Shown one piece after another: positions 1,672 to 2,395 of a stretch of 4,492 nt of DNA (its first letter is position 1; each line of letters opens with the position of its first letter). Under the pieces are notes generated by a model that worked only from the letters and a program-made list of their open reading frames with translations, ran no database searches and had not been told where the DNA came from. The DNA lies in IMG/VR virus record IMGVR_UViG_2913112809_000001; one strand, 5' to 3'. The translations under genes were made by a program, and so were the position numbers. The stretch is from a virus (taxonomy: Duplodnaviria > Heunggongvirae > Uroviricota > Caudoviricetes).

Positions 1672-2016
1672 TTAGTCCTTGCGTAGCTCGCTGATTCTTC
1701 TGTAAGTCTCTGGCGCTTTGTTTCCGTGTATCTTCATTTCAGACTTCAACAGAGTAACGAGGGAATCCCATTCGTTGAGGATGCCTTTGAATGCCGGAAC
1801 GCGCTTTGCAACCTTGTCGAATGAATTTCTGATTTCTGGAATCTGCTCGACAAGTGCAACGCATCGCCGGAAGTCGGCTGCGTCATGTGGAGCGCCGAAG
1901 TGATGACCATAGATATTCTTTTTCAGTCCACATGCGATTGAGGCAAGAGTTGCGCTACTGATGCCGACATCGCCAGTCGTTTGCCATTTCAAAATCTTCA
2001 TAGCCAAATCTGACAT
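1672..2016 (-). CDS. Hypothetical protein (114 aa), unknown function, in the int/xis transcription unit
   Basis: ORF with ATG at 2016..2014 preceded by SD 'GGAGA' (6-nt spacer) and TAA stop at 1674..1672. The track's longer 123-aa version starts at an ATG (2043) with no SD that lies inside the upstream terminator. No family recognised; contains a His-rich stretch 'GHHFGAPHD'. Confidence 0.6.
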   Translation of the reverse strand: MSDLAMKILKWQTTGDVGISSATLASIACGLKKNIYGHHFGAPHDAADFRRCVALVEQIPEIRNSFDKVAKRVPAFKGILNEWDSLVTLLKSEMKIHGNKAPETYRRISELRKD

Positions 2017-2028
2017 TTCTTGTCTCCA

Positions 2029-2052
2029 ATAAAAAACCGCCATCAGGCGGCT
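2029..2052 (-). terminator. Rho-independent terminator (minus strand) downstream of the 2081..2395 gene
   Basis: On the minus strand: GC stem 'CCGCC', loop 'TGAT', stem 'GGCGG', then a T6 tract, located 30-50 nt after the stop of the upstream minus-strand gene. The T tract runs straight into the SD of the next gene. Confidence 0.55.
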
Positions 2053-2080
2053 TGGTGTTCTTTCAGTTCTTAAATTCGAA

Positions 2081-2395
2081 TCAGCCTTTGGTCACCCAGC
2101 ATTGTGAGTCACCATTACACGGGCATGAATTAACAGGAACTCTCTCGCCGCACTTACCGCAACGTTTTCTGCTGATCGATTTTATACGCCAGCGCACAAG
2201 TGCATCATCCTGGCGGCTCAGTAACGCGATGTACTCACCAAACTCGTAAGGCGCACGCCTGAAGCGACGCGTGGCACAGTTACGCTCCAGCATTTCAATT
2301 TCCTGAGCATCAAGTACAAGCTCCAGCTTACGCATACCGGATGATGCTTGCTTGGCTCTCTGATCGGCTTTGCGCTCTGCTGCTGATTTAGCCAT
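2081..2395 (-). CDS. Hypothetical small protein (104 aa) with possible ribbon-helix-helix-like N-terminal region and Cys-rich C-terminus (putative zinc ribbon)
   Basis: ORF with ATG at 2395..2393 and SD-like 'AGGAA' upstream. The C-terminus 'RKRCGKCGERVPVNSCPCNGDSQCW' has a C-x2-C ... C-x-C arrangement. The N-terminal basic/helical segment 'MRKLELVLDAQEIEMLERN' is compatible with a small DNA-binding regulator. No family recognised with confidence. Confidence 0.55.
   Translation of the reverse strand: MAKSAAERKADQRAKQASSGMRKLELVLDAQEIEMLERNCATRRFRRAPYEFGEYIALLSRQDDALVRWRIKSISRKRCGKCGERVPVNSCPCNGDSQCWVTKG

Follow-up and report, generated by a model that had tools for sequence, protein, structure and literature searches.

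Organization of the locus

The virus record IMGVR_UViG_2913112809_000001 (Caudoviricetes) was analyzed over a stretch of 4,492 nucleotides (nt), referred to here as the window. At positions 1672 to 2395, two small genes read from the minus strand, with products of 114 and 104 amino acids (aa), lie upstream of an excisionase (xis) and an integrase (int) gene and are separated by a terminator-like hairpin. A sequence-only reading had described this arrangement and had proposed that it could couple excision to a regulatory signal; the open reading frame (ORF) calls and the minus-strand reading confirm both genes and the intervening terminator (Table 1). Our analysis indicates that the interval is probably the decayed end of a lambdoid exo-xis operon, in which the 114-aa gene, known as ORF114 from phage 434, is a conserved cassette behind a junction of terminator and Shine-Dalgarno (SD) sequence, and the 104-aa gene is an unrelated cassette brought adjacent by a deletion.

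Window positions 1 to 2081 are 97.9% identical to an E. coli prophage adjoining fliE, and positions 1669 to 2081 show 95–97% nucleotide identity to HK022, 434, mEp043, mEp213 and many Stx phages. The individual elements, that is, ORF114 of 434, the terminator of lambda orf55 and the family PHROG 536, are already known at the sequence level.

Table 1. Coordinates of genes and other features in the 4,492-nt window.
Feature	Position	Strand	Basis
Tyrosine integrase, 434 aa (Arm-DNA-bind_2 + Phage_integrase)	1-1305	-	Domain matches
Excisionase, 81 aa (DUF1233 / PHROG 539)	1351-1596	-	Profile matches
C9 homopolymer run in the ORF114-xis spacer, 25 nt upstream of the xis ATG	1622-1630	-	Sequence
6-bp hairpin GCCUCA-N7-UGAGGC directly 3' of the ORF114 stop, without T-tract	1638-1656	-	Read from sequence
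114-aa gene = phage 434 ORF114 / PHROG 1229, all-alpha protein	1672-2016	-	Profile, alignment, model
ORF114 SD GGAGA, 6 nt before the ATG (2014-2016)	2023-2027	-	Sequence
Terminator-like hairpin and T-tract	2028-2053	-	Fold, conservation, lambda identity
orf55 remnant, last ~12 codons	2043-2080	-	Comparison with relatives
Joint left by the deletion, linking codon 104 of the 112-aa family gene with the orf55 3' end	2080-2083		DNA alignments
104-aa gene, C-terminally truncated member of the PHROG 536 112-aa family (putative ribbon-helix-helix + Cys5 motif)	2081-2395	-	
HumD/UmuD-like S24 peptidase gene, internal fragment (pseudogene)	2398-2577	-	
Low-GC segment between 58-nt inverted repeats (2568-2625 / 3581-3638)	2568-3638	none	
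Invasin_D4-like ORF, 233 aa, within the low-GC segment	2794-3495	+	
DNA polymerase III theta (HolE/Hot)-like gene, 3' fragment, cut at ~3822-3838	3687-3830	-	
Tail-fibre gene 3' end, last ~115 codons (PHROG 3299/454, intramolecular-chaperone-like end)	3838-4188	+	
97-aa ORF, PHROG 1443	4199-4492	+	

A conserved terminator-like hairpin abuts the ORF114 ribosome-binding site

On the minus strand, the hairpin region reads AAGCCGCC-TGAT-GGCGGTTT, followed by TTTATT, GGAGA, CAAGAA and the ATG of ORF114. As RNA, the hairpin corresponds to AAGCCGCC-UGAU-GGCGGUUU and is followed by UUUAUU, the next base being the first G of the SD. It comprises eight pairs, five of them G-C, with a GC core stem (2046–2050/2037–2041) and a 4-nt loop (2042–2045), and the T-tract UUUUUUAUU (2031–2036 and 2028–2029) directly follows the stem. 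The terminator had thus been placed correctly to within a few bases (2029–2052), and its T-tract indeed abuts the SD, with the last T touching the first G of GGAGA. The calculated folding energy is −13.4 kcal/mol (z = −3.0), an equally good fold being obtained in 2 of 200 shuffled sequences. Although no other site in the window resembles a terminator as closely, the number of such sites window-wide (8 observed, 4.6 ± 2.1 expected) is not significant by itself, and the support for this hairpin therefore comes from its conservation. A scan against Rfam returned no match.

A hairpin (−7 to −14 kcal/mol) with a T-rich tail reaching AT(T)GGAGA precedes ORF114 in 88 of 91 copies. Four distinct stems occur at the same position. 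In a tally for which the register was set manually, as MAFFT placed the hairpin classes in different registers, pairs 4 and 5 were swapped on both sides (G-C/C-G), pair 3 formed the series C-G, U.G and U-A across classes, and the closing pair alternated between G.U and A-U. In the Cronobacter copies, with 75% protein identity, the architecture is kept while stem and loop differ. These comparisons provide good evidence that the hairpin is a selected terminator-type structure. The terminator features and the compensatory stem changes also agree with the earlier proposal of read-through, which the 114-aa gene, xis and int would need in an intact phage.

The hairpin is not confined to loci of this type. 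It is identical to the one that ends orf55 of phage lambda (29118–29285), with 100% identity over AAGAACACCAAGCCGCCTGATGGCGGTTTTTT, and the lambda copy lies on the same strand and at the same place of the leftward operon, upstream of xis. This copy has been predicted in silico as terminator "t5-lambda" by two programs (Bloch et al., PMC4195576, Table 4). In lambda the T-tract leads into the CII-site/pI region and xis, whereas in the window, 434 and HK022 it reaches the SD of ORF114. The orf55 stop codon of 434, HK022 and E. coli prophages lies in the hairpin loop, with ORF114 coming next. The 434 record M60848 (1991), in which ORF114 and its upstream neighbour ORF55 received their names, annotates two terminators, t-L4 and t'-I, in the same stretch of 700 bp; the hairpin described here, in contrast, is unannotated in both 434 records. 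Like this hairpin, the tL-series terminators of lambda are of the intrinsic type and lie inside the pL operon upstream of xis and int, and the presence of t-L4 and t'-I nearby fits a series of insulators.

We also considered that the hairpin might serve chiefly as an RNA element, either as a 3'-end or processing barrier stabilizing the upstream mRNA or as a modulator of ORF114 translation. The constant contact between U-tract and SD, the position of the ancestral orf55 stop codon in the loop, and minimum free energy folds in which an upstream CCAA pairs with UUGG, extending the stem into the first SD bases, would be in line with such a role. However, this extension amounts to four weak pairs that are absent from the centroid structure, and it is not found in a second group of loci (class B, see below), where the flank differs and the CCAA/UUGG pairing is missing. 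A GC stem followed by six to eight U is moreover the classic signature of a terminator, and both programs applied to the lambda copy (PMC4195576) were terminator predictors. A role chiefly as an RNA element is hence quite improbable.

The juxtaposition of the 104-aa gene and the terminator is a deletion scar

We aligned the window with related E. coli prophages at the DNA level. The gene order in these relatives is a 112-aa gene, a DUF2513 gene, orf55 and ORF114. Compared with them, the window carries a deletion of ~0.7 kb that removed the DUF2513 gene and most of orf55, the left end being codon 104 of the 112-aa gene and the right end lying ~12 codons before the end of orf55. The TGA stop codon of the 104-aa ORF arises at the joint, and the last eight codons of the 112-aa gene are lost. 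The hairpin and the 27 nt that separate it from this stop codon represent the 3' end of the deleted orf55. In the remnant, the former TGA stop codon lies in the hairpin loop and a G-to-T change adds a premature stop. Accordingly, the 104-aa gene abuts the terminator only because of the ~0.7-kb deletion, and the alignments show that the gene-terminator-gene layout, as read from these sequences, is a deletion scar and not a designed regulatory unit. Six other loci, L012, L019, L022 and L031 among them, share this joint; the six include ~41-kb prophage contigs and the genome of an Escherichia sp.

This history bears directly on the proposed coupling of excision to a signal, according to which the 104-aa protein would be a regulator and the terminator a dedicated switch for the 114-aa gene, xis and int. 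A hairpin with terminator features does adjoin the SD, and the label "transcriptional regulator" of PHROG 536, together with a weak ribbon-helix-helix (RHH) similarity and a Cys-rich tail of the protein, would suit a regulator. The adjacency on which the proposal depends is, however, the deletion joint, as the relatives have the DUF2513 and orf55 genes in between. Lambda, 434 and HK022 possess the same terminator without the 104-aa gene, and in these phages the terminator belongs to the end of orf55 or to the orf55/ORF114 junction. The window copy of the protein has also lost eight conserved C-terminal residues, and its family resides in the nin region in other genera. A promoter inside the upstream gene, which had been offered as another route to expression, was not supported either, since no sigma70-like site was detected from 2016 to 2545 on the minus strand. 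In lambdoid phages, leftward transcription ordinarily passes terminators by means of N and nut or, in HK022, of put RNA, and such read-through is not a special coupling. We consider the switch very unlikely.

The 104-aa protein belongs, in truncated form, to a family without a fixed link to xis and int

The 104-aa product matches PHROG 536 over residues 1 to 104 (E = 6.4e-46). Of its 447 relatives, nearly all have 112 residues, and the window copy ends before the conserved last eight residues, WHETKLxV, so that it does not match the family over its full length. E. coli members of 112 aa are 95% identical to it. The invariant Cys residues of the family, C40, C79, C82, C91, C93 and C99, the last five of which are C-terminal, are kept in the window copy, as is the predicted strand-helix-helix core.

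The sequence-only reading had assigned to this protein a putative DNA-binding N-terminal region and a Cys-rich, zinc-ribbon-like C-terminus. The Cys-rich character is seen in the invariant C79, C82, C91, C93 and C99, and the DNA-binding region is plausible, resting on a distant likeness to YbfE, a LexA-regulated RHH protein of E. coli. The resemblance is weak, with an NCBIfam E-value of 0.0065 in 8 of 22 family members, and a comparison of the 112-aa family with YbfE by hhalign gave E = 0.0077 over 53 columns across the strand-helix-helix core. No RHH match was found for the family in Pfam, and a profile search of the PDB gave no matches. Structure prediction, which had been suggested for both proteins, was of little help here: the AlphaFold2 (AF2) model of the 112-aa protein contains two helices but is poor (pLDDT 55). 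The protein thus plausibly combines an RHH-like N-terminal half with a Cys-rich C-terminus and is a candidate zinc or DNA binder, judged from its sequence.

In prophages of Salmonella, Edwardsiella and Raoultella, the 112-aa family gene is located between dnaB and Q, in the nin region. The family accordingly has no fixed link to xis and int, which argues against an excision-linked regulator. The 112-aa gene has a terminator of its own there, beyond which lies a LexA-box promoter (e.g., TACTGGATATTTATACAGTT) driving a DinI/Rem-like gene (L097, 3340–3520; L101, 3463–3478; L102, 3484–3499). Members of the family often neighbour SOS-linked genes (HumD, DinI) and are not themselves LexA-controlled. 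LexA-box control of the 104-aa gene, an idea arising from YbfE, HumD and DinI, was rejected, as no CTGT-N8-ACAG box lies upstream of the gene in the window and the boxes in the other loci belong to genes downstream of the 112-aa gene.

ORF114 belongs to a widespread family of phage proteins

The 114-aa product had been described as lacking a recognizable family. This holds for Pfam and NCBIfam but not for PHROGs, since the protein matches PHROG 1229 over its full length (residues 1–114, E = 1.4e-51) and equals ORF114 of phage 434. The 434 protein (AAA67902.1) and the homologues of HK022, mEp043, mEp213 and Stx phages are of equal length and 92–98% identical to the window copy, and the 434-type homologues share its SD/ATG context and its position before xis. 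The surroundings of the 434 gene differ in other respects: the xis/int module of the window is of another type (DUF1233 and Arm-DNA-bind_2), the second hairpin, annotated as t'-I in 434, is absent from the window, and the upstream neighbour is a different gene. An alternative start at an ATG at 2043, giving 123 aa, was discarded, as this reading would cross the hairpin and the homologues diverge upstream of MSDLAMK.

Searching 1.84 billion cluster representatives with a profile yielded 2,848 relatives with E ≤ 0.001, of which 571 reached E ≤ 1e-10, the clusters of the family being formed at 50% identity. In an alignment of 43 diverse members, W11, G18, S20, S21, G30, P43, D45, D48, R51, C52, L55, P60 and W83 are invariant or nearly so, and the window copy retains all invariant residues. 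The AF2 model consists of seven helices and is confident (pLDDT 93.6), so that for this protein the suggested structure prediction did succeed. In E. coli, Cronobacter and Citrobacter, the early-left genes always end with this gene or with one more gene between it and xis/int, whichever type of integrase follows, and in 434-, HK022-, Stx- and P22-like prophages it directly precedes xis/int. We conclude that ORF114 is a real, conserved and widespread phage protein.

Clues to the function of ORF114 were sparse. No family was found in PADLOC, a Pfam search with the 43 diverse members gave only noise, and no relative in the PDB was detected by sequence or fold. Nine of ten fusion partners of the ORF114 domain carry no Pfam domain, and the remaining one, a CCA-adding/HD enzyme, offers no functional clue. 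This protein (P0312, 558 aa) combines a CCA-adding/poly(A) polymerase head, an RNA-binding domain, an HD domain and an ORF114-like C-terminal domain (residues 451–538); it is a single metagenomic case and could be an artefact of gene calling. The contexts of distant relatives, including two jumbo-phage-like contigs, likewise gave no functional hint. The clusters carried no names, and our literature search found no experimental study of 434 ORF114 or ORF55 or of tL4/t'I.

Small, fast-shuffled accessory genes at the early-left end of lambdoid phages often have anti-defence or host-takeover functions. On these general grounds ORF114, and perhaps the 104-aa protein, could be such effectors, as the sequence-only reading had supposed, with a position that reflects early expression against host immunity. 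The wide distribution of the ORF114 family in phages, the jumbo-phage-like contigs included, and its conserved polar motif would agree with this. The searches speak against it, as neither protein matched any family in PADLOC, matches in Pfam, NCBIfam and the PDB were lacking both by sequence and by fold, the neighbours in distant contexts were uninformative and the literature was silent. We regard effector functions as unlikely. As a guess, ORF114 may be a small modulator, binding or catalytic, that acts on a protein or ligand through the conserved polar site S20, S21, D45, D48, R51 and C52.

A bolder proposal, building on the helical model without a PDB counterpart and on the invariant Ser-Ser / Asp / Asp / Arg-Cys site, would make ORF114 the founder of a large uncatalogued family and a new small enzyme or host-factor inhibitor, bracketed by terminators in lambdoid phages so as to appear only together with Xis under antitermination, and would make the junction in front of it a dedicated, reusable adaptor. 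We hold this combination to be improbable. If it were true, the unit of terminator and SD would be an adaptor for both recombination and expression of exo-xis cassettes.

The terminator/SD junction recurs before different cassettes

The unit consisting of a GC hairpin, a T-tract, AT(T)GGAGA, ~6 nt and an ATG, located at 2023 to 2053 in the window, is not restricted to ORF114. It was also found upstream of 28 copies of orf55, that of lambda among them, as well as before a 99-aa gene (MACSTFN...) and two genes of Cronobacter; examples are found in 434 (L003, 2040–2300), lambda (L105), L008, L010, L018 and many more loci. In the class-B loci, the pre-orf55 hairpin of 434, which is part of t-L4, is joined straight to the CAAGAAATG of ORF114, and it looks as if orf55 had been lost there by a crossover between two junctions. 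The recurrence of the unit suggests that it is a selected cassette boundary that would double as terminator and ribosome-binding site.

Comparative studies of HK97/HK022 and of HK620 reportedly proposed that conserved "linker" sequences at gene boundaries mediate module exchange among lambdoid phages. As with these linkers, a short conserved junction recurs before different cassettes. Unlike them, the boundary described here is itself a functional-looking unit of terminator and SD, in which recombination is suggested by the class-B arrangement.

The window is probably a prophage remnant

In the relatives, the theta-like gene continues into abc2 and ssb. In the window, the early-left region is instead joined directly to the 3' end of a tail-fibre gene at 3822 to 3838, so that more or less the entire central part of the prophage has been lost, pL with it; ~35 kb appear to be deleted. 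With pL and most of the prophage gone, any expression in the window must come from local promoters, and no antitermination apparatus comparable to that of the lambda leftward operon is present. For this copy the idea of excision coupling is thus moot, although int, xis and ORF114 are intact.

In view of this decay, it could be argued that nothing in the interval is functional in this genome and that it is drifting debris of a dead prophage. The humD, theta-like, tail-fibre, orf55 and 112-aa genes are all truncated, and the apparent loss of ~35 kb points the same way. Against this, int, xis and ORF114 are full-length and 95–98% identical to copies in ~41-kb prophage contigs, and the 104-aa allele with the same joint is found in larger prophages too, which implies that the joint predates the decay. 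Pure debris is therefore a rather doubtful description of the interval.

Several other features of the window were noted. The theta-like (HolE or P1 Hot-like) and HumD (P1 UmuD'-like) fragments share one lambdoid early-left region, and in L022 the theta-like gene is intact and follows abc2. The low-GC segment between them (1,071 bp, GC 35–39%) is bounded by 58-nt inverted repeats that match to 98%. Relative to its flanks, it has the opposite orientation in L012, L019, L022, L031 and L082 and the orientation of the window in L032 and L106, which shows that it is inverting or at least inverted. No target-site duplication or invertase was seen for the segment, and neither 5,426 complete E. coli genomes nor the phage collection gave a megablast match to positions 2540 to 3840. 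The Invasin_D4-like ORF belongs to a tiny family restricted to Escherichia (14 clusters, mostly from cryptic clades). At the other side of ORF114, the C9 run near the xis start is a possible slippage-prone tract and is C8 in the three closest relatives (L031, L032 and L106), and the stem of the hairpin directly 3' of ORF114 is shared with phage 434, where the loop differs (L003, ~1690–1710).

Interpretation and significance

Taken together, our results suggest that the interval would be the far end of the early-left operon of a lambdoid prophage that has decayed. Unmodified RNA polymerase would be halted by the hairpin, acting as an intrinsic terminator, and in an intact phage ORF114, xis and int would be reached only by antiterminated transcription from pL, dependent on N/nut or on put in HK022. 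In a lysogen, the terminator could insulate the excision genes from stray upstream transcription, while on read-through transcripts the U-rich tract beside the SD may aid translation initiation. The junction of hairpin and SD would also serve as a crossover point for the gain and loss of cassettes, and the 104-aa gene would be an unrelated accessory cassette that became the neighbour of the terminator through the ~0.7-kb deletion.

Several points weigh against this interpretation. Three Citrobacter copies of ORF114 (59% identity) have no hairpin and only a 9-nt gap, and the terminator is therefore not obligatory for the gene. Many of the 88 hairpin-bearing copies are not independent, since most ORF114 copies are more than 95% identical. 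The stem classes may be separate terminators and not one diverging hairpin, in which case the swaps would not be strict covariation. Termination efficiency and read-through are deduced from the sequence, the assignment of the remnant status relies on 4.5 kb, and the RHH assignment of the 104-aa protein is weak (E about 0.007), with a poor AF2 model of its 112-aa family. Despite these reservations, we consider the decayed operon end with its conserved cassette and junction the probable explanation.

The locus itself matters little, as near-identical sequences were deposited decades ago for 434, HK022 and lambda. Of wider relevance is ORF114, which represents a very widespread family with a confident structural model and a clear invariant motif but with no Pfam entry and no structural relative solved, and which is present in the well-studied model phages 434, HK022 and mEp043, where knockouts are easy to make. 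The junction found before several exo-xis cassettes, in turn, provides a testable example of a boundary that may both insulate transcription and mediate the shuffling of modules.

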